In this document: positions 15,821-52,178 of the stretch, piece after piece
Layout of the letters: every line of letters begins with the position of its first letter
Position numbering within the stretch: position 1 is the stretch's first letter
Source of the DNA: an uncultured Gammaproteobacteria bacterium
Lineage (GTDB): Bacteria > Pseudomonadota > Gammaproteobacteria > UBA9214
Direction of reading: 5' to 3'
NCBI GenBank assembly: GCA_963773065.1
Contig: CAVYZN010000032.1
Span: 64,001-128,000, forward strand
Length of the DNA stretch: 64,000 nucleotides
Translations under genes and position numbers: made by a program
The notes under the pieces: generated by a model
Databases searched by the model: none
What the model saw: only the letters and a program-made list of their open reading frames with translations
Told to the model about the DNA's origin: nothing

Positions 15821-16104
15821 GGGAGCGGGCTGCGTTGCCTGGGTTCACAAGGGTTTTCTGGCAGTTGATGGACAGGCACTATTAAAAAGTGGTTATAGTG
15901 CACCACTCCATGGAACCTCGCCATAGAAACCTATTTAAGTCCATGACGGCCGGGCGCAATAACGCCGGCGTATTGCGCCGCAGGGAACGTCACCTGCGGC
16001 GAATTTCACTTTCGCTGATTCGCCCTCTGATATGAATGGCACTTACTTAAGCCGAAATGTTGGGAGAGCAGCGGCCGTAAAATGCGTGCGAGCTAACGGC
16101 CTTG

Positions 16105-16710
16105 TCAGGGCTGGCTGACTGGCGGCTGATAACTGACATTCTCATTCTCAATCACGACATACTGCCGCTGGCGCAATTGCTCGATCAGGCTCATCAACTC
16201 AGGTTCTCCAAGCGTTTTCATAAACAGCGCGTTGATCGTATTGGCCAGGGTTTTGACCTTGCGCGGCCGGGAGTGGCCACGGGCGGAAAGGCTTTTTTCG
16301 ATAGCGGCAATCTTCTCTTCGGATGATGTGGCGTTCGAGATTCTCAGCAAAGGTATTTCGGATAGATCCCTTACCCGCTGGGCAACTATCTTTCTTGCTT
16401 TTAGATGCTTGATGAGCGGATCGAAGCCGGTATCTTTCGAGATGATATGGAAGCAGGCATTGGGTTCACGTTCCGCCAACTGGCCGACATAGAATGCGAT
16501 GTGAAAATCCAGGGCATTGGAACCATTGCCGCCGATTTTCACGTACTCGGCATTACTGCCCAGCACTTGCAGCGATGCGGCGAGATCCAACGGCACCTTC
16601 GATTGACTGGCGCCGACGAAAACCAGCACCTTGAAGGGATGACCATTGAGAAGAGTCAGGTTCTTTGGCTGGACATTCTCGAAATCAATCAGGATGTAGT
16701 TGGTGTTCAA
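16105..16710 (-). CDS. PIN/NYN-like domain protein (cassette-type gene)
   Basis: TTG start after AAGAGGA; YILIDFENVQP, NALDFHIAFY, IISKDTGFDPL; forms the 3' half of the 386-aa ORF. Confidence 0.75.
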   Translation of the reverse strand: MNTNYILIDFENVQPKNLTLLNGHPFKVLVFVGASQSKVPLDLAASLQVLGSNAEYVKIGGNGSNALDFHIAFYVGQLAEREPNACFHIISKDTGFDPLIKHLKARKIVAQRVRDLSEIPLLRISNATSSEEKIAAIEKSLSARGHSRPRKVKTLANTINALFMKTLGEPELMSLIEQLRQRQYVVIENENVSYQPPVSQP

Positions 16711-16769
16711 GCGGTATCCTCTTTTTCTTTTCCAAGCGTTCGTAAAATAAATCTGTCCACATTTCATCT

Positions 16770-17265
16770 CTTTTCTTCTATTTGTTGTGGCCACGCCTGG
16801 CCAGTACTTCCAGAGTACAACAAAAGTGATGTAGTGCGTCACCAGCAACGCAGGAACCCAGAACGCGGGTATCCAATAGGCCGGACCCATATACGCCGAC
16901 GCTCCATAGAGCGTAGCCAGCGTTATAGCGGCGATCAGGTCTACCGTTCCCTCCACGTTGAAAATCCATACGAGCAGCCGGGCGCCGCGGGCATTTCTGA
17001 TCACGACCGGTATCGCGGCCAAGGCCAGCAGGGCGGCAAGCAGGTCTCCGAATGCCGCCGGATAGGCGAATCGCGGAGGGATACCCGCGTAGGTGGCACC
17101 AGGCGCGAGAAACATCAGTCCGAGGTGTCGAAACGCATGGAGCAGGAGAATCGGCGGTAGAACGACCTGCGGCTTGAGTTCCGGCAGTTTCGGCAGGAGG
17201 TAGATCCTGGCGGCAAGCCAGAACACGAATGTACTGAATAGAAGATTGACAGTGAGAATGTTCAT
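16770..17265 (-). CDS. Small multi-TM membrane protein, reading through in frame into the PIN gene
   Basis: Hydrophobic helices with LHAFRHLGLMFL and FGDLLAA; 3' boundary approximate. Confidence 0.6.
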
Positions 17266-17370
17266 CGAATAGCCCTTGCAGCGTTATTCACGCTTGAAAA
17301 GTGATCTGATCGGGGTAGCGGATGCCTCGCAACAACCCAGCCTGGTATAGCTCGCACGCAACGCATCGGA

Positions 17371-17976
17371 TCAAACCAGAGCCTGGGTGTCGCACTCGCT
17401 GCGCTCGCAAGACCGCTCGCGCGCATGCTTCATCGCATTCGCATACCACTCGAGTTCGGTCAGAAACCGGCTCGCGCGCCGCGGATAGTTGGCATCGACC
17501 GGTGTCCCGTCGTCCCCGAAGGCATCTTGTACGGCCGGAATCGGCAGGATGGAAGGAATACTCGCCATCCCCATCTCCGCCAGCATGGCGCGCAGCGTCA
17601 TCGCCGCGCGCACGCCACCGAAAGGACCCGCCGAATAGCAGACGATCGCCGAAGGTTTCCAGAAGTATTCCTCGAGAAAATGGTCCATAAGATTCGTGAG
17701 CGCCGGGGGCACGGTATGGTTGTACTCCCCCGAGACGACGATGTAGGCGTCCGCCGGAATGATGATGCGCGCCAGACTTTGCAGCACCTGGGGAGCCTCG
17801 TGCGGATCGTATTCCTTGTACATCTTGTCGAGCAGTGGCAAGGGATACTGCAGTGGATCGATCAAGGTGACTTCGTGCCCGCGTTCGCGGCATTGGTTGA
17901 CGATGAATCGCGCCGCTTTTATACCCTGTCGCGCCGAGCGAACGGAGCCGTAGAAGACGACGATGTTCAGGGGCAT
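17371..17976 (-). CDS. NADPH-dependent FMN reductase
   Basis: YGSVRSARQG, EYNH, YSAGPFGGVRA. Confidence 0.88.
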   Translation of the reverse strand: MPLNIVVFYGSVRSARQGIKAARFIVNQCRERGHEVTLIDPLQYPLPLLDKMYKEYDPHEAPQVLQSLARIIIPADAYIVVSGEYNHTVPPALTNLMDHFLEEYFWKPSAIVCYSAGPFGGVRAAMTLRAMLAEMGMASIPSILPIPAVQDAFGDDGTPVDANYPRRASRFLTELEWYANAMKHARERSCERSECDTQALV

Positions 17977-18119
17977 ATTCGTGACTCCTGCATGGAGGAT
18001 TGAAGCATACTCCTCTTGCGTTCCGGTTCAATCGGAGTGTGGGGGCGGCGCCAAGGCTCGTTTATTTTCCGAGTGTTGAGAAAATAAATCTGTCACCTAT
18101 TCCGGTTGTCAGATACCGG

Positions 18120-18449
18120 CTACTTGTCGCCGGTAATCGTTTGTTCTACTGACGGATCGGCCCATGGAGTGCCTTGGAGTCGAGACTGGTAGAAACGCTG
18201 ACAGTTCGCCAGGAATTCCTCTCGAACGGGGAGCGTGTCGTGAGGGTACGTCGGCTCTTCTTCGACCAATCGCCATAGCGCAACATCATTAAGCCAGCAT
18301 AATGAATGTCCTGTCTGCGACCGATGGTCGCGTATACCGTCTCGTAGCCGCTGCACTTCTTTTGCCAGGCGGGATATGACTGACACATCGCTGGAACAGT
18401 ACTCCGCAAGCTCGGAGTCGGCGATATAATCGTCTTTGTTTTGCGTCAT
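18120..18449 (-). CDS. Hypothetical protein
   Basis: 109-aa ORF with GAAGG RBS; followed by an attC R''-like box (ATCTGAC). Confidence 0.6.
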   Translation of the reverse strand: MTQNKDDYIADSELAEYCSSDVSVISRLAKEVQRLRDGIRDHRSQTGHSLCWLNDVALWRLVEEEPTYPHDTLPVREEFLANCQRFYQSRLQGTPWADPSVEQTITGDK

Positions 18450-18489
18450 GACGCCTTCCGTTCCTGTTTGAAAAACCCGGGCCAGAGAA

Positions 18490-18644
18490 GAATGGTACTT
18501 ACTTAAGGCAAGAGTCCGAATTTTTCGTCATTCCCGCGGAAGCGGGAATCCAGGAGGTTTCATGAATGTCTGGATTCCGGCTCTGCGCTGCGCTCCGGCC
18601 GGAATGACGGTTATGCAGAAGTTCCCCTTAAGTAAGTGCCATTC
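18490..18644. repeat. Nested palindromic element: outer GAATGGYACTTACTTAAG inverted repeats around an inner GTCATTCCCGCG-type REP doublet
   Basis: Outer arms 18490-18507 and 18627-18644; single outer arms also at 16034-16051 and 49163-49179. Confidence 0.8.
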
Positions 18645-18727
18645 CTCTCTGATCCGGCTTTATACTCGCCCGGGATGGGACCATACGTTGATGAGCTGAA
18701 CCAGAGTTGTCCGTTCATCGTTGTGCT

Positions 18728-18796
18728 GCCCAGCGTTCGACGCGATGCGTCCGCAACGGCTTGCCGTCGTGTGTCGCCTCGACGGAGGGTGCAGGC
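18728..18796 (-). other. Degenerate attC site
   Basis: Minus strand GCCTGCA-CCCTCCGTCGAGGCGAC..ACGGCAAGCCGT..GTCGAAC-GCTGGGC has attC architecture with mutated core boxes. Confidence 0.55.
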
Positions 18797-18815
18797 GTCA
18801 TAATCGATTCGGTTC

Positions 18816-19433
18816 TCACCGCACGACCCGGTACGTGATGTGAGTGACGAGCGGTGAGCTGCTGGCGCCCACTTGCTCCAGCCTGAAGCTGGCCGGATCG
18901 AGGTGATCCAGCAACCGAATGCCGGTGCCGAGCAGTACCGGAGCAATGTGCAGGGTGAATTCATCGATGAGGCCGGCTTCGATGAACTGCCGGATGGTTT
19001 CGGCGCCTCCCGAGACCCGCACATCCTTGCCGCCGGCGGCGGCTCGGGCCTGATCGAGGGCGCTCGCGATGCCGTCGGTGACGAAGAAGAAGGTCGTTCC
19101 GCCCTTCCTTGGCCAGGGTTCGCGCGCGGAGTGCGTGAGGACAAACACGGGTGCGCGGAACGGCGGGTTCTCGGGCCAGCCGACTTCTCCCTCGTCGAAC
19201 ATGCGACTGCCCATCACATACGCGCCCGCGCGCTCGAAAACCTCCCTGACAAGCGCATCATCGGGTGAAGTCTCCCCGCCCGACAAACCGATGCGTTCCA
19301 GAAAGCTCGCCGTCTGGAACATCCACTCGTGAATGCGGGTGCCCCCATCCCCCAGCGGGTTACCCGGACCCCGGTTTGTGCCGGCGAGATAACCGTCCAG
19401 CGAAACGCCAACGTCGAAGAAGACATTGCTCAT
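18816..19433 (-). CDS. Dihydrofolate reductase/RibD C-terminal family protein
   Basis: VSLDGYLAG, VMGSRMFD, GGKDVRVSGGA, IAPVLLGTGIRL. Confidence 0.88.
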   Translation of the reverse strand: MSNVFFDVGVSLDGYLAGTNRGPGNPLGDGGTRIHEWMFQTASFLERIGLSGGETSPDDALVREVFERAGAYVMGSRMFDEGEVGWPENPPFRAPVFVLTHSAREPWPRKGGTTFFFVTDGIASALDQARAAAGGKDVRVSGGAETIRQFIEAGLIDEFTLHIAPVLLGTGIRLLDHLDPASFRLEQVGASSSPLVTHITYRVVR

Positions 19434-19576
19434 GTTTTCGCTCCTGTTGATTGACGGAGTGCCGGCCTCTGTGCGTGACGCTTACCTCCGCTCTTGAGAC
19501 GCGGTAATAATAACCGGGTCAGAGTACAAATAAGGCTAATATTAGCGAATATTGTTCTATGAACCAGGTTTTTCTG

Positions 19577-19837
19577 CTATATGCCGCAACACTTTTTAAA
19601 CTTCCTTCCGCTTCCACAGGGGCAGGGGTCATTCCGCCCAATCGATTCTTCCACTCGATAGGGTTCGGATGGATTCAGCAGTCGCTAGACATTACTGATG
19701 TCTTCCGGTGCATCAGGTTCAATTCCGGCGATCACCTGCCAGCCATTTGCAGTGCAGATGGCCACGATTTCCTCGGCCCTTTCCTGGGTGGCGACTCTAA
19801 CCACGGCCGGATGTTTCCTTGTCCCGAGTTTCGCCAT
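19577..19837 (-). pseudogene. SEC-C motif protein with one in-frame TAG
   Basis: Manual translation MAKLGTRKHPAVVRV...EDISNV*RLLNP...[20 protein letters not shown]; internal stop at 19685-19687; absent from the ORF track. Confidence 0.8.
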
Positions 19838-19859
19838 GCTCTTGGTTCTCTGTCATTAC

Positions 19860-19919
19860 TGCCAATGACAGCGCTAAGCCGCGCCGCTTTTTGGCGGCGG
19901 CTTGAGCGTATAGTTGGGG
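19860..19919 (-). other. attC site with mutated R'
   Basis: CCCCAAC-TATAC-GCTCAAGCCGC..GCGGCTTAGC-GCTGTC-ATTGGCA; L''/L' pair with the typical extra base. Confidence 0.75.
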
Positions 19920-20152
19920 CACAGTTGCTGGTAAAGGAACTCCGGCGCGAAGTCCGCCCCGTTGGGCCAGACAATGGTTTCAAGTTCCTCATCCAGAAAC
20001 AACTCCGCGAATAGCGCCTTATCATTCAATGGCTGGAACATTTCACCCCACAGTTCGTCTTCAAGGTCGACTTCGCCTTCCACTCCATCTGCAAACCTTA
20101 ACCAGATACGGTAGTCACCTTGATACCTGGCTTCTCGCAATTTCGGCAACAT
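19874..20152 (-). CDS. DUF2442 protein (TA partner)
   Basis: YRIWLRFADG..VDL, TIVWPNGADFAPEFLY. Confidence 0.85.
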   Translation of the reverse strand: MLPKLREARYQGDYRIWLRFADGVEGEVDLEDELWGEMFQPLNDKALFAELFLDEELETIVWPNGADFAPEFLYQQLCPNYTLKPPPKSGAA

Positions 20153-20156
20153 GGCA

Positions 20157-20417
20157 TTACTCCAGCGGTTCAATTTTCTTCAAGGCTTTTCTGTCTCGGG
20201 CCAAATTCCAATCTTCGGTCAGCTCGGTTTTGTGATATTCGCGCCACTCTTGCACCAGACCCAAAACACGGGGAGGCAAACGGCCCTCGATTACCTCACC
20301 CGTATCTATCGCAATGACTGCTACAAAATCCCCATACTTCGCATGAAAGTGAGGAGGATTATAATCGTTGAAGTACATGGCGATAATGATGCCAAGGAAT
20401 CTACTGATTACCGGCAA
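20157..20417 (-). CDS. DUF4160 protein (TA partner)
   Basis: MPVISRFLGIIIAMYFNDYNPPHFHAKY. Confidence 0.9.
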   Translation of the reverse strand: MPVISRFLGIIIAMYFNDYNPPHFHAKYGDFVAVIAIDTGEVIEGRLPPRVLGLVQEWREYHKTELTEDWNLARDRKALKKIEPLE

Positions 20418-20432
20418 GATATCTCTCCATGT

Positions 20433-20513
20433 CTATACAGCCCTCATCGATTCAACATACGCGACTGGTTCAAGATGCTCGGCCTCCGCGGCAGGATGAA
20501 AGTAATAGCTCAT
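20433..20513 (-). pseudogene. Truncated RelE/ParE-type toxin, N-terminus only
   Basis: MSYYFHPAAEAEHLEPVAY then a stop; ATGA overlap with the upstream antitoxin. Confidence 0.65.
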
Positions 20514-20734
20514 CTAAGCAAGGCCTGTGCTTTCTTTCTGACCTCTTCCGCAGGGATGGGTTGCACAATGCCTTCGTCGAGTTCTCTGGCTCGACGGTGT
20601 GCTTCAATCAACCAATCTTCTTCTATTTCATCCATATTTTGCGCATCAAGACTCAATAGGAGTTTCTGTGTCAACTCTGCTCTTTCTTCCTCTGATAGAT
20701 GAAGAGCTTCATCTTCAATTTGCTTTAGGTTCAT
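20510..20734 (-). CDS. Addiction module antitoxin component (TIGR02574-like)
   Basis: EALHLSEEERAEL..LLLSLD..W..EAHRRAREL. Confidence 0.85.
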   Translation of the reverse strand: MNLKQIEDEALHLSEEERAELTQKLLLSLDAQNMDEIEEDWLIEAHRRARELDEGIVQPIPAEEVRKKAQALLR

Positions 20735-20757
20735 GTCTTTCTCCTGAATCAGTGATT

Positions 20758-20830
20758 GGGACAGAAATATTTTCCATGTGTTCGGAAAATAAATCTGTCA
20801 CCATTTCTGTCCTAAAATAAACCTGTCCCC
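20758..20830. repeat. Family A repeat (AAAATAAATCTGTCACC-type palindrome plus an extra arm)
   Basis: Arms at 20758-20775, 20784-20802 and 20814-20830; other copies at 16744, 18061-18103, 22516-22564 and 26712. Confidence 0.85.
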
Positions 20831-20864
20831 ATTTCATGTCACCGAACTCATGGCGCACTAGGCC

Positions 20865-21338
20865 TTACTTGTTCTGGCCCGCCTCGACGAATGCCGCGAG
20901 TTTGTCGAGTGCCATCCGCCAACCGGTTTCGTTGTCAGCGGTCGACAGGCCAGGCGGCAGGTTGTCGTGTACGGCGAGCACATCCGTGCCGCCGTCCGCC
21001 TCAGTGAGCGTGAACGTGACCATCATCTCGCCGCGCATCGCGGCATCGGCCGTCTCGAACTCCATCACTTCGACCACCTGCTCATTGGGTACGAGCTTGA
21101 CGAAGTGGCCGTGGTAGGTGTCGGTGTGCGCGGTCGTCTTGCCGGTCCCGGTCGGCTCGTCGTATGTGAGCGAGATTCTGAACAAACCACCTTCGCGAGC
21201 GTCAAACACATGCACGTGGCTGGTCATGCCAGTCGGCACCATCCATGTCGCGACCGCTCGCGCATCGAGAAGCGCGCCATAGACGTTTGCGCGAGGCGCG
21301 TTCACATGGCGACGGGTGCGCGTAGAGGTGGTGGCCAT
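20865..21338 (-). CDS. SRPBCC/AHSA1 domain protein
   Basis: APRANVYGALLD..W, FDAREGG, GWRMALDKLAA. Confidence 0.88.
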   Translation of the reverse strand: MATTSTRTRRHVNAPRANVYGALLDARAVATWMVPTGMTSHVHVFDAREGGLFRISLTYDEPTGTGKTTAHTDTYHGHFVKLVPNEQVVEVMEFETADAAMRGEMMVTFTLTEADGGTDVLAVHDNLPPGLSTADNETGWRMALDKLAAFVEAGQNK

Positions 21339-21367
21339 AAGTTGAATCCCCCACGGCGGATTGTGAC

Positions 21368-21443
21368 GCCTGACGCCGCGGTTCAGGCTCGACCCGGCCG
21401 AGCGAAGCGAGGCTGGGACGTCTCCTGGAACCGCTTGTTGGCC
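21368..21443 (-). other. attC site (R' GTCAGGC)
   Basis: GGCCAAC-AAGCG-GTTCCAG..CGCTTCGCTCG..CTGAAC-CGCGGC-GTCAGGC. Confidence 0.8.
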
Positions 21444-21453
21444 GACACACGGC

Positions 21454-21639
21454 TCATCTCAGGCTCCGGAACGCCCAAACGCAGAGGCTGCCGGTGACGG
21501 CCGCCGCTATCCATGATGCCCACACGGGCACCTCGAAACTTCCGACGTGCACGGGCAACTGACTGAGTGCGCGCCATGTTTGAGCTACGGCAACAAAACC
21601 GAAGATCAGGCCTGAAACCACAACATATTTGTTGGACAT
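21454..21639 (-). CDS. Small two-TM hypothetical cassette protein
   Basis: GGAGG RBS, 61 aa, followed by an attC. Confidence 0.7.
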   Translation of the reverse strand: MSNKYVVVSGLIFGFVAVAQTWRALSQLPVHVGSFEVPVWASWIAAAVTGSLCVWAFRSLR

Positions 21640-21677
21640 GACTGCCTCCGAATCGAGGAGCCATGATACTTGAAACC

Positions 21678-21731
21678 AATCGAGGGGTCAGAATACTTGA
21701 AAAACTGTTCAAATACTCTGACCCCTCGATT
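21678..21731. repeat. Family B repeat (GGGGTCAGAGTAC-type palindrome)
   Basis: AATCGAGGGGTCAGAATACTTGAA / TTCAAATACTCTGACCCCTCGATT; further arms at 19516-19532, 21651-21674 and 26318-26340. Confidence 0.85.
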
Positions 21732-21751
21732 ACGTCGTAGGCTCGATGGGC

Positions 21752-22186
21752 TTATTGGTACGTTTTACCGTCATGCATTAACCAGCCATCGATATGTCGA
21801 TTACCTGGGTCATGGTGTGTCCAGTGGATAACTCCACCTTTCGGATTCCACTCGTATTCACCATAGAACGCTACGGTATCCCCGGTGCTCAATCCGCTGA
21901 CCCTGGGCGCCAGATCGATGTTATGAGTCACCAACACTGTTTGCCCGGTATCGAGCCTTAGAATGAACCGTTGGTGCCTCGATCCATCAACATCATCAGC
22001 CAACAGCTTCGTGACAATGCCTTCTCCCTGTACCTGGAGATCGCTTTGTCTGTTGTCATAGGCATCCTGGAGAGTATTGTCAGCGCCCCGGGTCCATGAG
22101 GAAAGGCCGGGCAGGGAAATGCCTTGTTCCTGAACGAACCCGTAGGCCAATGCTGCAACGACAACCAGGACAAGAAGTTTTTTCAT
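21752..22186 (-). CDS. DUF3465 secreted protein
   Basis: Signal peptide; DDVDGSRHQRFIL, HNIDLAPR, GEYEWNPKGGVIHWTHHDP. Confidence 0.9.
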   Translation of the reverse strand: MKKLLVLVVVAALAYGFVQEQGISLPGLSSWTRGADNTLQDAYDNRQSDLQVQGEGIVTKLLADDVDGSRHQRFILRLDTGQTVLVTHNIDLAPRVSGLSTGDTVAFYGEYEWNPKGGVIHWTHHDPGNRHIDGWLMHDGKTYQ

Positions 22187-22195
22187 GTTTTTCCA

Positions 22196-22276
22196 ATGTA
22201 ACATGCAGGTTCAGAGACCGGCAGCCGGCAAGCGTAGCGTTGCTCCTTGACGGTTACTCGGGACCACAGGTCAGGC
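22196..22276 (-). other. Degenerate attC site
   Basis: GCCTGAC right after the stop codon ... CTGAAC-CTGCAT-GTTACAT. Confidence 0.6.
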
Positions 22277-22515
22277 TTAGTCGCCACACCACTGCGACTC
22301 GCAGGGAATGCCATCACCGTCACCATCAATTTCCACGCCGGGGCAGTTATCCAAATAAAACGTCGCCTCTTCGCAGGAGTTCATCTCATTGCAACGGGAC
22401 TTTCCCTGGCATTGAAACCCCGGAGTGCTGTTGCTCTGTGTCGCGGACTGGTCACTTCGGAGAAGTTCGACGTGACTCGTTTTCTGGGTGAATTGCTGCC
22501 ACCCATAGTAAGAGT
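22277..22515 (-). pseudogene. Excalibur Ca-binding domain protein, 5' truncated
   Basis: Manual translation YGWQQF...FQCQGKSRCNEMNSCEEATFYLDNCPGVEIDGDGDGIPCESQWCGD*; no start codon, the frame runs into a family A repeat. Confidence 0.8.
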
Positions 22516-23179
22516 AATTGGCACAAATTTATTTTCCAAGTGTTCGGAAAATAAATCTGTCACCTTTTCTCGTATGACATGAGCGGCAGCCCACGGTTTT
22601 CCGTGAGCTACCGGCGATAGGAGGTTAGACCTCTTCGGGGAGTGCGTACTGTGTGATATCAATCGTCTTCTCACCCTTCTTGCGACGCAGGGTGTATTTA
22701 TTTCCCTTGCGGTAGATGACTACATGCCAGTACGTGCGGTCATCTTTCGTCGTGGTCCACGATCCTTCAAGCCACGGCTCGAACTCGGTGAAAGGAATGA
22801 GGATGAGTCGCTTGCTACTGCCGCAACCGAAGGCGACATAGGCCTTCGGATGTGCACGTAAGAACTCCTGCTGGTGCGGATGAAATGCGAACCAATAGTT
22901 GGGATTGGTCTCGGGGTTGTGCTCCTTCGACACGGAACAGTTCAGTGCCATGTCCTTGTCCGGTGAAGAATACCCCGCGCGACTACGCTTTACGAGAGAA
23001 ACGCCGAGCGCGGCTTGTACCCGTTGCACGCAAGCTTCGTGGAAGGCCACCGGCTTGAACTTCGGCCCTTCTGGCCCAACGGGCGCGGCGGCGTCTTCTA
23101 CCTCCACTGACTCCTCATCCTGTTTGATCTCCTCTGCTGCCGAAAACAGTATGTCGGCGATTGCATCGAGACGAGTGAA

Positions 23180-24811
23180 CCTTACTGATGCATAAAACTC
23201 AGGCATGAAGGAAGAAATACGCTTGTATTATAGGGCCCACGACTCATTCGTCCCCTGATCCTGGGGTTCACTGATAGTGCATTCCAGAAGATGGTAAAAA
23301 TGACGATGAAAGTCCGCGTGTAACCATAAAAAAACGGTTTCCGAATTGGTAGAATGCGTTTGCCAAAACCATCCAACCAATCAAAAGGAAACCGTTCACG
23401 ATGAAGTGTAGCAGAGCCGAAATACACCGTAAAACCTACCGGCTTCCCGCGCTGAGTTTTGAAGACCAACAGCTCACCTCGTTCTCGGGACTCATTATTT
23501 TCCAGGCGCTGTTTGCTCGTCTGCAACTTAAGCGCCGGCTCAGCGGCTGTTTTGAGCATCTGCGCCTCACCCCGATCTTCGGCCATGGGGTGATGGTGTT
23601 GCTGCTGGTGGTGCATTTGCTGCTGGGCTACCGGGAACTGCGTGATATCCGCTACTACCAGGACGACCCGCTGGTGCGCCGAGTGCTGGGGCTTACCCGA
23701 TTGCCGGATGCCTCGACCCTGAGCCGGGCTCTCGCGAACACCGATCAGGCAAGTGCCGAGAAGCTGCGCCGGCTCTGCCGGTGCCTGGTCCTGGAGCGTC
23801 TGGCACGTCTGGAACTGCAGCGCATTACGGTAGACTTTGACGGCTCGGTGCTCTCCACCGGTCGCTTTGCCGAAGGGGCGGCGGTGGGCTTTAACCGCAA
23901 GAAGAAAGGCCAGCGCAGCTATTATCCGCTGTTCTGCACCCTGTCGCAGACCGGGCAGATCCTGGATGTATGGCATCGCCCGGGCAATGTGCATGATTCC
24001 AACGGTGCCCAGGCGTTCATCCTCGAGTGCATCCGGGCGATCCGCGCGGTGGCACCCCAGGCGCTCATCGAAACACGCATGGACAGCGCCTTCTTCAGCG
24101 ATGACATCGTCCGCTTGCTGGAGGCCCAAGGGGTGCAATACAGCATCAGCGTGCCCTTTGAGCGCTTCGCCAAACTCAAGCGCCTCATCGAGGCGCGCCG
24201 GCAGTGGTGGCGCCACAACGGGCGGATCGCCTATTTTGAGCGGCAGTGGAAACCCAGCACCTGGACACGGCGCGCCCGCTTTGTGTTCATTCGCCAGAGA
24301 AACAAGGTCCAATCCAAGGAACCGGTGCAGCTCGACCTCTTCGTCCCCTTCGCCTGGGGCTACGATTTCAAGGTCATCGTGACCAACAAGCGCGTGCGGG
24401 CCGGCAAGCTCCTCAGCTTCCATAACGGCCGGGGTTCGCAGGAAGGGGTGTTCGCGGAACTGAAAACCGACAGCCAGTTGGAGTATGTGCCTACGCGCAC
24501 GCTCGCGGGTAACCAGATCTATCTGCTCTCGGCGGTGTTGGCGCATAATCTCAGCCGCGAATTGCAGATGGAAACGACGGATAAACAGCGTGCAACCACC
24601 GCCAAGCGCACGCCGCTGTGGGCCTTTGAACGGCTGGATACCCTACGCCGCAAGCTCATTCAGCGTGCCGGCAGGCTCACTCGCCCACAAGGCAAGCTCA
24701 CCTTGACTCTGAGCGCCAATCCCTCGGTCAAAAACGCGCTGTTGCATTATCTGACCGAATTGGATAAGGCCGCATGAGTTCCAATTTCCGGTAAATTTAT
24801 GCAACGCTGGG
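23180..24811 (+). mobile_element. IS1380-family insertion sequence
   Basis: Duplicated GTGAA(C) at 23175 and 24812; imperfect ends sharing TGCATAAA. Confidence 0.85.
23401..24777 (+). CDS. IS1380-family DDE transposase
   Basis: LTSFSGL, ITVDFDGS, SYYPL, RPGNVHD, RMDSAFF, HNGRGSQEGVFAELK. Confidence 0.92.
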   Translation: MKCSRAEIHRKTYRLPALSFEDQQLTSFSGLIIFQALFARLQLKRRLSGCFEHLRLTPIFGHGVMVLLLVVHLLLGYRELRDIRYYQDDPLVRRVLGLTRLPDASTLSRALANTDQASAEKLRRLCRCLVLERLARLELQRITVDFDGSVLSTGRFAEGAAVGFNRKKKGQRSYYPLFCTLSQTGQILDVWHRPGNVHDSNGAQAFILECIRAIRAVAPQALIETRMDSAFFSDDIVRLLEAQGVQYSISVPFERFAKLKRLIEARRQWWRHNGRIAYFERQWKPSTWTRRARFVFIRQRNKVQSKEPVQLDLFVPFAWGYDFKVIVTNKRVRAGKLLSFHNGRGSQEGVFAELKTDSQLEYVPTRTLAGNQIYLLSAVLAHNLSRELQMETTDKQRATTAKRTPLWAFERLDTLRRKLIQRAGRLTRPQGKLTLTLSANPSVKNALLHYLTELDKAA

Positions 24812-25470
24812 GTGAACTCACGAGGAATCAGGATGCTATGGATGCGCTGAACAATAGCCGGGTCTTCGACCTCTTCCTTGATTGACATGAGCCGGAGCAG
24901 TGCATCCACTGAGATGAGGCGGATATCCCAGGCGTAGCGTGAGCCACGGATCTGCGCTTCAAGGTCGCCTGTGTCCTGCCGTCCGACAACGAACAGCATG
25001 GATGATTGGGCTTCCGTTATAACATTCGAGCCTACAAGGTCTCGGCGATAGCCTGCAATCGTGTTGAGATCGATGCGATACGCGTCCGTCGTCTTGACCT
25101 CGATGAGGATCGACTGATTGCTTGGAAAGAGCCACAGCCCATCAAAGCCCGTGTGTTTGACAGTCCCGCGGTAGCGTCCACGTGTGGCGGTAGCTCCGAG
25201 TCGGGCGCCGACTTCGTTGACGATGTCTTGAAGGACGAAACCAGAGTCCGGGAACCCGGACGACAGGCACTGTTCGCAGTACGCGACCAAGTTCGCAGAG
25301 GGAACACTTGCGAGGAAGTCTCGGAACTCCTTTGAGCACGTTCCGTCGTCGGTCAACTTTCCATCGCCTGCAATAGCAACGAGTTGCTGCACCTGCTTGC
25401 CTTGTAACTGCTCAGGTGATTTCTTCCAGAGATCAAGGAGTGACATGCGGTGCAGTCTACGTGTGTTGAG

Positions 25471-25495
25471 ATCTAACTCTATTAGAGGGCCTAAG
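25471..25495 (-). other. attI-like site
   Basis: Minus strand GCCCTCTAATAGAGTTAGAT matches attI1 GCCCTAAAACAAAGTT at 12/16 positions by eye; no attC hairpin upstream; AT-rich flank. Confidence 0.55.
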
Positions 25496-25659
25496 GATCG
25501 GGTTAGTCATATGATTCTCCTGTCTTTATTAAAATTAACTGGTCTTGAAATCAATTCGGTTGACTCCATATAGCATGGCCTAAAAGGAAAAACAAACTTA
25601 GCTCAAGGCTTTCCCTGAATGTCATTTCGGTTTCTACGTATATCATCGCCGTGAACCGG

Positions 25660-26000
25660 TCCATGCCGTGCACCAGCTCCCAACTCACGGCCGTCCGAAT
25701 AGTCGGCGGACTTCAGTTGTCAGTGTATTCCTGGATAACACCAGACAGGCATGGCAACGTTCGCCCTGCGTTGTTCCAGTGAAAATCATACGATGATCTT
25801 AATGCCATCGATTCACGACCCACCCAGTACGCTCCAAAGCCGCAAAACGCGTTTTGCCTTCGTACCTGGCCAATGTGTCACGCCGTGGCAAAGGAGATAT
25901 GAATCGGTTCAAGAGGATGTTCGCCGTGCTCGATACGTTCCGCGAGAACCCGGAGCGCGAGCGCCTCGGCTTGTGCAATGGCCGCTTCACGAGCGTAGCC
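25660..26000 (+). pseudogene. Decayed RAYT/IS200-like Y1 HUH transposase remnant
   Basis: Residual motifs in the expected order: ILMP, PWQRRY, EDVRRARYV, ENP (shifted frame), QWP; REP-like remnant at about 26165-26248. Confidence 0.45.
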
Positions 26001-26318
26001 GTACTTCATTACTCCTGGTAGCTCGGGAATTTCCGCGATCAACGACCATCTTCCTCACGGTCGATTTCCAGTGTGAACATCATAGTGTTTACCTCGGTTG
26101 TTTCCCCGCAATGATAGTAGGTAGCCGGGTTGAGCGACAGCCACAACATCGCCGGGAGCAATGTTGGACAGACGCAGGCTGGCCCGCAGGCGGAGTCCAT
26201 GGAGGGACTCCGCAAACCCGGGTTTCACTGCGTTCAACACAGGCTACCTCCTGCGTCCGGGTTCAGCCAAGTGACGATGAGAGGGTAACCTGGTCGGCGT
26301 CATCGACGGAATCAAGGA

Positions 26319-26612
26319 TCAAGGGCTCAGAGTACTTGAACCGCGCTTTTTGCCGCGTACGCTGGGACGCGATGTCAGGGGTTCTTTGAATTGCGAGGCG
26401 TAAAAATCAAGGAGTCTGCGGATCATGGCTTGATAGGAAGTGTGATTCTTTTTCGCTTCAGTCTTGAAAAACTCGATGCTTGCCTTGCTAAGCGATAGGG
26501 TTACCTTGACGTTCTCCTCTTTGAACACCAAGCTTTCCGGTGGAGGAAGAAAGTCTTCGATTACGCGCACCTTTCCAAGTGGCTCGTCTGAATACTTGAT
26601 TTTGCTCTTCAT
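26319..26612 (-). CDS. BrnA/CopG-like antitoxin
   Basis: KIKYSDEPLG..IEDFLPPPESL..VKVTLSL..YQAMIRRLLD; C-terminus runs through an attC remnant. Confidence 0.8.
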   Translation of the reverse strand: MKSKIKYSDEPLGKVRVIEDFLPPPESLVFKEENVKVTLSLSKASIEFFKTEAKKNHTSYQAMIRRLLDFYASQFKEPLTSRPSVRGKKRGSSTLSP

Positions 26613-26690
26613 GGATTCTCTCGACTTTTCGCCAATATCCTGCGCCAATAGGTCTGATGATTCCGTTGAGATAGGTGAACCGGTCCGTGG
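26585..26690 (-). pseudogene. BrnT-like toxin, 3' remnant only
   Basis: RFTYLNGIIRPIGAGYWRK..HEEQNQ; 5' part missing just inside the family A repeat at 26712. Confidence 0.65.
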
Positions 26691-26778
26691 GAATTGCGGG
26701 ACTAAACAGCAGAAAATAAATCTGTCACCTATCCCACCACGTTTCTATATGAAATACCGCGTCGACCAGGCGTAATGA

Positions 26779-27165
26779 TCACTCCGTGGCGTCGATCACC
26801 TTCACCCCATAGCGGCCCAACATTCCATCGCTGCTGACGATATCAAGTCCTTCCGCCTGCGCCTGGGCGATGAGCATCCGATCAAAGGGGTCGCGGTGAA
26901 TGGCTGGCAACTCACCCGCCCGCTCACCATGAAAAAAGGTAACCGGCAACTTCTCGAATCCCTCTGCGTCGATGACCCCATCCAGGTCGTCTGGCGCTTT
27001 CAGCTTACCGATGGACTTCTTGATACTGATCTCCCAGGCACTCGCGGCGCTGACATAGACTTCGTTGTTCTCGTTTTCTATGAGCTGTCTCGCATTCGGG
27101 CCCAGGCTCGGATCGTCGGCAAGCCACCACAGCAGGGCTTGGGTATCGAGCAGCAGGCGCTTCAT
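26779..27165 (-). CDS. vapC: VapC PIN toxin
   Basis: LLLDTQALLWW, VSAASAWEI, HRDPFDRMLIAQA. Confidence 0.92.
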   Translation of the reverse strand: MKRLLLDTQALLWWLADDPSLGPNARQLIENENNEVYVSAASAWEISIKKSIGKLKAPDDLDGVIDAEGFEKLPVTFFHGERAGELPAIHRDPFDRMLIAQAQAEGLDIVSSDGMLGRYGVKVIDATE

Positions 27166-27404
27166 TCCCGCCCCTCGAAGTCCGCCACAAGCTCGGCCGG
27201 CGTCTGGTCGAAATCTTCAGCCAGGGTGATCTGTCCCTTAAGACGTCCAGGTTTTCGCCTGGCGCGTCCCGCCCGATGGGGGAGGAGGTCCAGGTATGGC
27301 TTGCCTGCCTTGGCAATAACCACCTTTTCTCCCTTCCAGACCAATTCTCCCAGCTCCGAAAGCCGGGATTTTGCTTCATGCATATTAACTTGCTTGGTAC
27401 TCAC
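27162..27404 (-). CDS. Phd/YefM antitoxin
   Basis: QVNMHEAKSRLSEL..GEKVVIAKAGKP..RKPGRLKG. Confidence 0.9.
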   Translation of the reverse strand: MSTKQVNMHEAKSRLSELGELVWKGEKVVIAKAGKPYLDLLPHRAGRARRKPGRLKGQITLAEDFDQTPAELVADFEGRE

Positions 27405-27431
27405 GGCGAGTGCTCCTGTCAGTGCCAAATG

Positions 27432-27449
27432 TTAGCTAAGTTTAGCTAA
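27432..27449. promoter_or_regulatory. Putative TA operator
   Basis: Two tandem palindromes TTAGCTAA-GT-TTAGCTAA just upstream of the antitoxin. Confidence 0.6.
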
Positions 27450-27654
27450 TTCTATGCGGCTCTGACAACCGGGAGAACTCCGGCACCCAACCATGCCCAA
27501 TCGGCAGCCCAGAGAATCAGGCCGACATAAAACCCGGGTGACCCGCTATCATCCCCACGCCCCGCAGACAGGGATACGGACCGCCTTCCCGAAACCCGAC
27601 CACCAGCACATCAAGCAATGCTCTGGGCGCCCCCGTTTCGCTTTATTTGAGTGC

Positions 27655-47411: not shown

Positions 47412-47463
47412 GCGGCGGGTCGTCCCGCCTGTTACCCGAACCGCCCCGGGGCCGTCCCCGGCG
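47412..47463 (-). ncRNA. Guanidine-II (mini-ykkC) riboswitch
   Basis: Two GC hairpins with ACGR loops, CCGGGG-ACGG-CCCCGG and GGCGGG-ACGA-CCCGCC, about 20 nt before the uca start. Confidence 0.85.
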
Positions 47464-52012: not shown

Positions 52013-52112
52013 ACCTCCCGGGCTTTTATCCCGCCGTGTAACCCCCCGCAAGAGAGGTCGGCGACTCTCGGACCAGCCATCCGCCACCGGCGGACCGGAA
52101 CCCTAGTCACCT
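52013..52112 (-). ncRNA. Guanidine-I (ykkC-yxkD) riboswitch
   Basis: CTAGGGTTCCG..CTGGTCCGAGAG..ACACGGCGGGATAAAAGCCCGGGAG. Confidence 0.93.
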
Positions 52113-52178
52113 ATTCCTGTCATTGGGGAGCGGACCCGGTGATGCCGCACGGTGTCGATCCCCCGCGACAGAGAGAAA

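Follow-up and report, generated by a model that had tools for sequence, protein, structure and literature searches.

Y1 transposases flanked by terminal inverted repeats (TIRs) were named TIRYT by Di Nocera et al. (2013), and the units that they form were named TIRtrons; the TIRs share the motif GGGGWSAS, and the repeat families occur as singles, dimers, and clusters (PMC3733652). Most TIRYTs fall in TnpAY1 subclass 2.1 (Quentin et al. 2018; PMC6006769), whose transposases carry NHVH and YIELNP motifs and have a median length of 238 aa. This subclass equals group 1 of the RAYTs (transposases associated with repetitive extragenic palindromic sequences, or REPs) in the scheme of Bertels (PMC6006769), which is the most widely distributed RAYT group, shows signs of horizontal transfer, and has flanking 16-mers that are only moderately repeated (Bertels et al. 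2017; PMC5581495). Here we describe a locus where repeats of this kind lie at the cassette junctions of an integron remnant. The window analyzed is a 64,000-nt stretch of the genome of an uncultured gammaproteobacterium (assembly GCA_963773065.1, contig CAVYZN010000032.1, positions 64,001 to 128,000, forward strand). Between 16.0 and 27.5 kb it holds an array of small genes whose junctions carry two families of palindromic repeats, A and B. The original prediction had taken these palindromes for signals of an undescribed system that targets attC hairpins and splices, deletes, or re-mobilizes cassettes independently of the integron integrase IntI.

The supposed new system is two described systems superimposed. 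The class of repeat and enzyme was published in 2013 as TIRtron/TIRYT, complete with the GGGGWSAS motif (PMC3733652, PMC6006769), and the unusual part is its placement at cassette junctions. The array is probably a decaying integron, devoid of integrase, whose junctions were colonized by two low-copy families of TIRYT TIRs before it decayed further. Colonization alone does not account for the coincidence of repeat edges with cassette borders.

The assignment of A and B as TIRs of TIRtrons, and hence of TIRYT-type HUH/Y1 transposases (RAYT group 1, TnpAY1 subclass 2.1), is well supported. The outer motif GGGGWSAS is fitted by both A (GGGGACAG) and B (GGGGTCAG). At a Pseudomonas locus (L116), an intact gene for a 235-aa Y1_Tnp protein lies between two inverted copies of A (GAAAAGGGGACAGATTTATTTT...); the protein matches PF01797 (Y1_Tnp) at 48 bits and contains the motifs TNHVHLLL and YIELNPV. 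A TIRYT homologue is present in 19 of the 119 A-bearing loci listed from other genomes, within 300 nt of the motif in 15. In the genome studied here, contig C26 carries a frameshifted TIRYT gene between inverted A arms. For family B, a 236-codon Y1_Tnp gene with B on both sides (L167; PF01797, 54.8 bits) and a second Y1_Tnp gene adjoining B (L145) were found in two of the 17 other B-bearing genomes; no family-B transposase was found in the present assembly, which is 90.9% complete. The suggestion of a RAYT-type HUH enzyme is borne out, in that A and B flank intact Y1 genes elsewhere and A flanks a decayed copy here. The same genome contains four further TIRYT-like genes (C11:147967-148644, C8:39664-40539, C17:85808-86575, and C28:45832-47094). 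Three of these have their own exact inverted repeat starting GGGG[AT]CA, and the fourth has a like motif by eye.

The resemblance to TIRtrons extends from the outer motif and the inverted copies around a Y1 gene of about 235 aa, with its NHVH and YIELNP motifs, to the occurrence of dispersed single and dimer copies in low number and to a wide, patchy taxonomic spread that suggests horizontal transfer. Unlike the described units, the copies in the window carry no gene and gather at the junctions between cassettes in an integron remnant, an arrangement for which no description was found in the literature. They differ also in the array variant GGTGACAG and in an A 19-mer that several phyla share without change. 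Nor was the exact A motif string found in the literature, where the names TIRYT and TIRtron appear in two works only; the supplementary TIR and REP lists of PMC3733652 and PMC6006769 may include A or B.

The REP/REPIN-RAYT systems (REPtrons) of Escherichia and Pseudomonas are similar in that hairpin doublets resemble non-autonomous partners of a single-copy HUH/Y1 enzyme whose gene is flanked by inverted repeats. However, the window copies have no GT[AG]G foot and their families number tens, not hundreds, of copies, and the transposase from L116 falls below the cut-off of the NCBIfam model REP_Tyr_transpos (NF047646; 73.9 against 80 bits). Some Pseudomonas copies of A carry an adjoining TTAGAGTAG. 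Membership in IS200/IS605, a group whose TnpA has a Y---Q motif and whose elements have subterminal hairpins but lack TIRs, was considered and rejected on three grounds: a tyrosine motif of YIELNP, inverted repeats at the ends, and a score with NF033573 of 21.4 bits against a cut-off of 55.

That the array is a degenerate chromosomal integron without an integrase is likewise well supported, and the description of an integron-like cassette array stands. The array has a GC content of 0.49-0.59, against about 0.65-0.70 in its flanks, and consists of small genes that lie on the minus strand throughout. A putative 155-bp remnant of an attI region (25465-25620, plus strand) is homologous to about 150 nt ending at the intI start codon in one same-genus genome (contig G001:C129; 72% over 135 nt, E 3.7e-8). 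The homology starts at an RYYYAAC box (ATCTAAC, 25472-25478) on the cassette side; no intI follows. The cassette direction predicted from this remnant agrees with the minus-strand genes on its left. IntI scores above the curated cut-off in 24 of 53 genomes of the same bacterial family, including three of the four of the same genus. In the incomplete assembly analyzed, the best TIGR02249 match reaches 81.8 bits against a cut-off of 265, and tblastn with a relative's IntI found nothing in the window.

A strict scan for R''/R' pairs (RYYYAAC...GTTRRRY) found no site in the array. The same scan missed a true attC in a relative and was therefore replaced by a relaxed scan and a covariance model, trained on 18 sites from the IntI-linked arrays of six relatives in one bacterial family. 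On those six arrays the model returns 70 matches (the 18 training sites among them), 69 on the strand expected from intI. In the window it returns only two, on the cassette strand, 1.5 kb apart, and each with a mutated R'. The better of these (19858-19919, minus strand; 21.5 bits, E 0.0059) has R'' CCCCAAC and R' mutated to ATTGGCA; in its core it matches an attC from the IntI-linked array of a relative at 91% identity. The weaker one (21373-21438, minus strand; 14.6 bits, E 0.34) has R' GTCAGGC. A further remnant (22572-22634, minus strand) can be recognized by eye from R'' GTCTAAC over a stop codon, L'', a 13-bp hairpin, and L', with no R'. Its hairpin is more stable than expected (z -5.2). 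It had been proposed that an attC running from 22630 stops where its GTT should be; by eye this remnant does keep the relatives' consensus from 22634 to the crossover G at 22572, but the attC model gives it no score at E ≤ 10. The cut attC remnants proposed at 18114 and 26380 are plausible by eye, but the model scores neither.

The array invites comparison with clusters of attC sites lacking an integrase (CALINs) and with sedentary chromosomal integrons, classes reportedly treated by Cury et al. in 2016. Like them, it has small cassettes in a common orientation with many toxin-antitoxin genes, a putative attI-region remnant, IntI-linked arrays in relatives, and two attC-like sites 1.5 kb apart; a CALIN requires two or more attC sites with less than 4 kb between them. 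It differs in that most junctions have no recognizable attC and half bear TIR repeats.

Repeats are present at every position named in the original prediction, although B at 19516 is only a 13-nt half arm (GGGTCAGAGTAC, 19516-19528). Family A is found as a doublet with a degenerate left arm (18061-18103), which abuts the terminal hairpin of gene 18120-18449 and ends close to the point (18105) where homology with the same-genus genome G002 stops; as a doublet (20758-20808) and an extra arm (20812-20836) that together occupy an entire junction (20758-20836); as a hairpin doublet (22513-22574); and as a single arm (26711-26735) upstream of the BrnA-like antitoxin gene (26319-26612). A further, degenerate doublet (16724-16766) is read through in frame between a membrane open reading frame (ORF) and a PIN7 domain. 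Family B forms a doublet (21678-21731) with a degenerate third arm (21651-21675), spanning 21651-21731, and a single arm (26318-26340) that overlaps the 3' end of the BrnA-like gene and, by eye, cuts an attC-like remnant at about 26341-26395.

All A copies of the array share one orientation. Three of the doublets form hairpins (z -4.5, -4.8, and -8.6), a result that none of 200 shuffles equaled; the degenerate A copies at 18055-18108 (z -1.8) and 16722-16768 (z -1.1) show no hairpin folding beyond shuffles. The variants of A in the window are GGTGACAG or GGGACAG, and the array copies make up a local sub-family with the rare GTCACC variant. The copies group into three pairs whose similarity extends past the arm itself, which suggests local duplication; the pattern is explained equally well by insertions that recurred and by duplication of the arms along with the adjoining junction DNA. 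Within the window the repeats are confined to the low-GC array, as first noted, but they are not found only at gene boundaries, since the copy at 16744 sits inside a 386-codon open frame (16105-17265) in which no stop separates the membrane ORF, the degenerate A doublet, and the PIN7 domain.

Arms were counted genome-wide at up to three mismatches, with the reversed sequence as a null. Family A has 26 arms in the genome, eight of them in the 11.5-kb array, which is 0.3% of the genome; family B has 14, with three in the array. The null count is 0 for both, so the local enrichment, and with it the repeat observation, stands. Confinement to the array does not hold beyond the window, for 18 A arms and 11 B arms lie outside it.

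The full A unit, GAAAAGGGGACAGATTTATTTTCC, is frequently arranged as an inverted doublet enclosing a variable loop, and the consensus doublet reads as a hairpin followed by a T-run on either strand. Its 19-mer GGAAAATAAATCTGTCNCC was found in no fewer than 119 stretches of a species-representative genome collection, among them, by record title, stretches from Gammaproteobacteria (Pseudomonas, Ectothiorhodospira, and Steroidobacteraceae), Nitrospirae, Coprothermobacterota, Deltaproteobacteria, and Acidobacteriota. The consensus GGGGACAG accounts for 164 arm occurrences among the 119 loci listed, a number of loci that is itself a lower bound. Within the bacterial family, A is present in 23 of 54 genomes, at 0-12 arms each, on scattered contigs. 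Of 401 genomes of the class, 18 carry family B, the present one included; a backwards control gave one match in total. Both families also exist as gene-less doublets or single arms. One genome of the same class (G391) contains 45 B copies (23 forward and 22 reverse), many of them in doublets, and may host an active B-type TIRtron.

General targeting of attC by A or B is not supported. Among 100 of the 119 A-bearing loci listed (702,686 bases) there are three attC-model matches, a count that may miss attCs near A in distant phyla because the model was trained on one bacterial family. The 150 ORFs flanking A in other genomes belong most commonly to Y1_Tnp (7), and the others of the 25 families listed are housekeeping. 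The six relatives' arrays, with their 70 attC matches, and nine further IntI loci contain no A or B at up to three mismatches; one relative's array carries a different TIR-type doublet. The length of neighboring ORFs, taken as a proxy for islands of small genes, was uninformative.

Rearrangements that involve the array can be seen, over the parts of it that they cover, in contigs from four public metagenome runs, at 88% likeness or more, which represent other strains or organisms; of the sequence words of 18000-23200, at most 13% are present in any one public run. In contigs of runs X2 and X3, the A doublet still follows the first cassette, the insertion sequence that splits this cassette in our genome is absent, and 42 nt of the attC-remnant hairpin are missing. 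In X1, the antitoxin cassette is joined upstream to a B-type doublet (20759|TGGG|21678, short side 53 nt) and downstream to a B doublet (21725|20488, short side 34 nt). In X3, the A loop (22540) is joined to the B third arm (21658), with a short side of 33 nt and intervening letters that are unknown. Because the short sides fall on repeats, these joints reveal that a B-type repeat adjoins the cassette but do not identify a single locus. They do establish that one cassette border can be taken by A in one lineage and by B in another. In an X2 contig, 17339 is followed directly by 16105 (short side 45 nt), a joint compatible with a tandem or circular form of a 1235-nt unit.

The antitoxin cassette of these joints can be compared with its relatives. 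Elsewhere the gene is a canonical cassette: among its homologues in metagenomes, 18 of 49 have a GTTRRRY-like core no more than 60 nt upstream, 25 of 49 have the conserved start TA[GA]AGC, and attC-model matches occur at 10 of 58 loci.

In the colonization that we favor, the doublets would be non-autonomous elements whose past movement, on single-stranded DNA, depended on a cognate TIRYT acting in trans. They may have landed in cassette junctions, which are non-coding and hairpin-prone, or have been duplicated along with them, and later deletions and local duplications would have stripped parts of attC sites and the ends of genes. Since the A transposase is a pseudogene and no B transposase is found in the assembly, the array copies are most likely fossils and not a working cassette-splicing system. 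Several observations weigh against simple colonization. Repeat edges meet cassette borders more often than it predicts. The attC remnant at 22572 ends, by eye, at its crossover G beside A, and the antitoxin cassette begins about 8 nt inside its canonical G|TTAGAGCC start, with an A doublet in that place. In X1, where the same cassette has B-type doublets on both sides, homology stops exactly at the outer edge of the A doublet. Copies outside the array in the same genome lie mostly beside toxin-antitoxin or defense genes: ORFs within 800 nt of 20 such A or B sites include members of DUF2442 (2), Unstab_antitox (2), dnstrm_HI1420, DUF433, HTH_37, DUF4160, ParE_toxin, Mrr_cat, and TIR_2, and at 20 random sites all the families are housekeeping among the 25 listed of 52. 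To these must be added the single-family training of the attC model, which may hide attCs near A in distant phyla. Locally, then, the proposed role in splicing, deletion, or re-mobilization has on its side the coincidence of repeat edges with cassette borders and breakpoints, so that splicing or deletion may have taken place at this locus; as a general rule for attC it is not supported.

Much of this evidence would also be expected if an HUH enzyme actively edited cassettes. TIRYT/TIR hairpins would insert at, or recombine with, attC hairpins near G|TT without IntI; cassettes would be deleted, replaced, or re-mobilized, and TIR doublets would become working junction elements. About six of the 12 junctions left of the attI remnant bear A or B, and the crossover-G ending of the attC remnant, the replaced start of the antitoxin cassette, and the X1 and X3 joints all accord with such editing, as does an attC-model match (C17:87314-87371, 29 bits) about 740 nt from the TIRYT gene on C17. 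We nevertheless consider it unlikely. The relatives' six IntI-linked arrays are free of A and B, with one other TIR-type doublet among their 70 attC matches; attC matches near A elsewhere are few and the neighbors there are housekeeping genes; and the cognate transposase is decayed or absent in this genome. The contig joints, moreover, are short overlaps (33-53 nt) on repeats in other organisms, and the paired likeness of the array copies fits duplication and not repeated targeting. There is a precedent in print for the idea: for Halorhodospira, a clustering of ssDNA-dependent elements beside an integrase-less attC cluster and the movement of CALINs by HUH elements have both been put forward as speculation (PMC7923331). 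More doubtful still is a specific homing, in which TIRYT hairpin doublets would seek out the attC hairpin of single-stranded DNA, either at its G|TT crossover point or beside it, and displace the attC. The doublets would then freeze or delete neighboring cassettes and later act as integrase-independent exchange points, with A or B at a given border according to lineage.

IntI is able to use secondary sites. It is conceivable, but very improbable, that IntI itself made the junctions by using TIR doublets, folded like attC, as surrogate or secondary sites, which would explain the G|TT borders. The borders lie at or near crossover points by eye, the doublets form stable single-strand hairpins, and IntI is common in the bacterial family; yet the doublets have no R''/R' AAC...GTT feet and no attC-model score at E ≤ 10, and the active arrays of relatives do without A or B doublets. 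We give least credence to the view that the repeats are not mobile-element debris but have been kept as cis signals, that is, as terminators, hairpins that stabilize mRNA, or operators for adjacent toxin-antitoxin genes. Such roles have been credited to REPs (PMC3733652), the hairpin and T-run of the consensus doublet would serve on both strands, and the copies lie upstream of genes relative to gene orientation. An identical 19-mer beside unrelated genes across many phyla argues against it, as do the partial degeneracy of the array copies, two of which fold no better than shuffles, and spacing in which nothing promoter-like is discernible by eye. A promoter or operator reading of A was dropped after such inspection.

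IS1111-attC insertion sequences are mobile elements that target attC. These elements and the group II introns of integrons (PMC7923331) resemble the repeats described here in sitting in or beside the attC sites of cassette arrays and in relying on single-stranded DNA structures. They differ in being whole elements with genes, for a DEDD transposase or a reverse transcriptase; here the repeats are short, gene-less hairpins, and attC targeting is putative.

The genes of the array, all on the minus strand, have these Pfam assignments: PIN7 (16105-16712), FMN_red (17371-17976), RibD_C (18816-19433), a DUF4160/DUF2442 pair (19874-20417), Unstab_antitox (20510-20734), where the canonical start G|TTAGAGCC is replaced by the A-doublet edge, AHSA1/SRPBCC (20865-21338), DUF3465 (21752-22204), an Excalibur-domain remnant (22277-22510), the BrnA-like antitoxin, and a PIN/Phd-like toxin-antitoxin pair (26779-27428). 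A small ORF (21454-21639) precedes the weak attC. The first cassette gene (22625-25446) is a 394-codon frame of unknown function, split by an insertion sequence; neither half matches a Pfam family. The Excalibur and BrnT genes had been said to have lost their 5' ends. The Excalibur domain itself is intact (PF05901, 38.9 bits), but no start codon lies upstream in its frame. For the BrnT-like remnant, Pfam was empty in a frame of 32 residues, comparison with one BrnT-like ORF of the same genome (named by eye) fell below shuffles and was not significant, and a peptide-motif scan yielded no comparator. By eye, a ParE/RelE-like toxin that lies downstream of the Unstab_antitox gene is reduced to some 30 codons (20418-20509), and a HicB-like antitoxin (25881-26108) seems by eye to carry a frameshift and has weak Pfam support (E 0.057).

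As a block, the array is not conserved among 40 relatives, where matches are limited to pieces, the insertion sequence, and repeats. DUF3465 homologues occur in the genomes G002 and G003, in a different order. The same-genus locus in G002 (L139; G002:C65:7400-9300) holds an internally deleted RibD_C gene, a DUF3465 gene fused by eye to a cold-shock-like N-terminus, and the 3' end of a gene matching 18120-18449; its gene order is unlike that of the window, and no A or B is present.

Other mobile DNA has entered the array. The insertion sequence in the first cassette (23175-24811, plus strand; DDE_Tnp_1_4 transposase, 23401-24777) is bounded by a 6-bp target duplication, GTGAAC. Metagenome contigs of two runs skip 23175-24811 and represent the empty site, and the 394-codon frame is open after its removal; copies 88-90% identical are found on contig C28 of the same genome and in same-genus genomes. 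A miniature inverted-repeat transposable element of about 170 bp (family C, 18485-18652) has AATGGCACTTACTTAAGG inverted ends unrelated to A or B, and a solo end of this family (16029-16051) marks the left edge of the array. There are 37 family C ends genome-wide, paired at a spacing of about 135 bp or about 1.5 kb, and the summed contig depth of the element exceeds 1000 in four metagenomes. A palindromic repeat of about 135 bp (26117-26252) starts GTTGGAC and ends GTTCAAC, the wrong polarity for attC; it recurs on many relatives' contigs and on contig C23 of the same genome, and its depth in metagenome contigs is high (48-195). Rfam has no match within the array. Elsewhere in the window, the minus strand carries Guanidine-I (52013-52117, 96.8 bits) and Guanidine-II (47415-47463, 44 bits) riboswitch aptamers, each of which exceeds its Rfam gathering score.

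The locus serves as an example that a palindrome at a cassette junction is not necessarily an attC site and that what appears to be a new system may be two known ones overlaid. TIRYT/RAYT group 1 is the largest and most widespread RAYT-like class, and the portions of the literature available assign it no known function or target (PMC3733652, PMC6006769, PMC5581495). Integron attC sites and the substrates of HUH enzymes are both single-stranded DNA hairpins. If the homing of doublets to attC were true, it would be the first cellular role or target for this class. An interaction between TIRYT and attC would then explain the decay, or the continued shuffling, of integrase-less cassette clusters, and would provide a TIRYT substrate that can be assayed.

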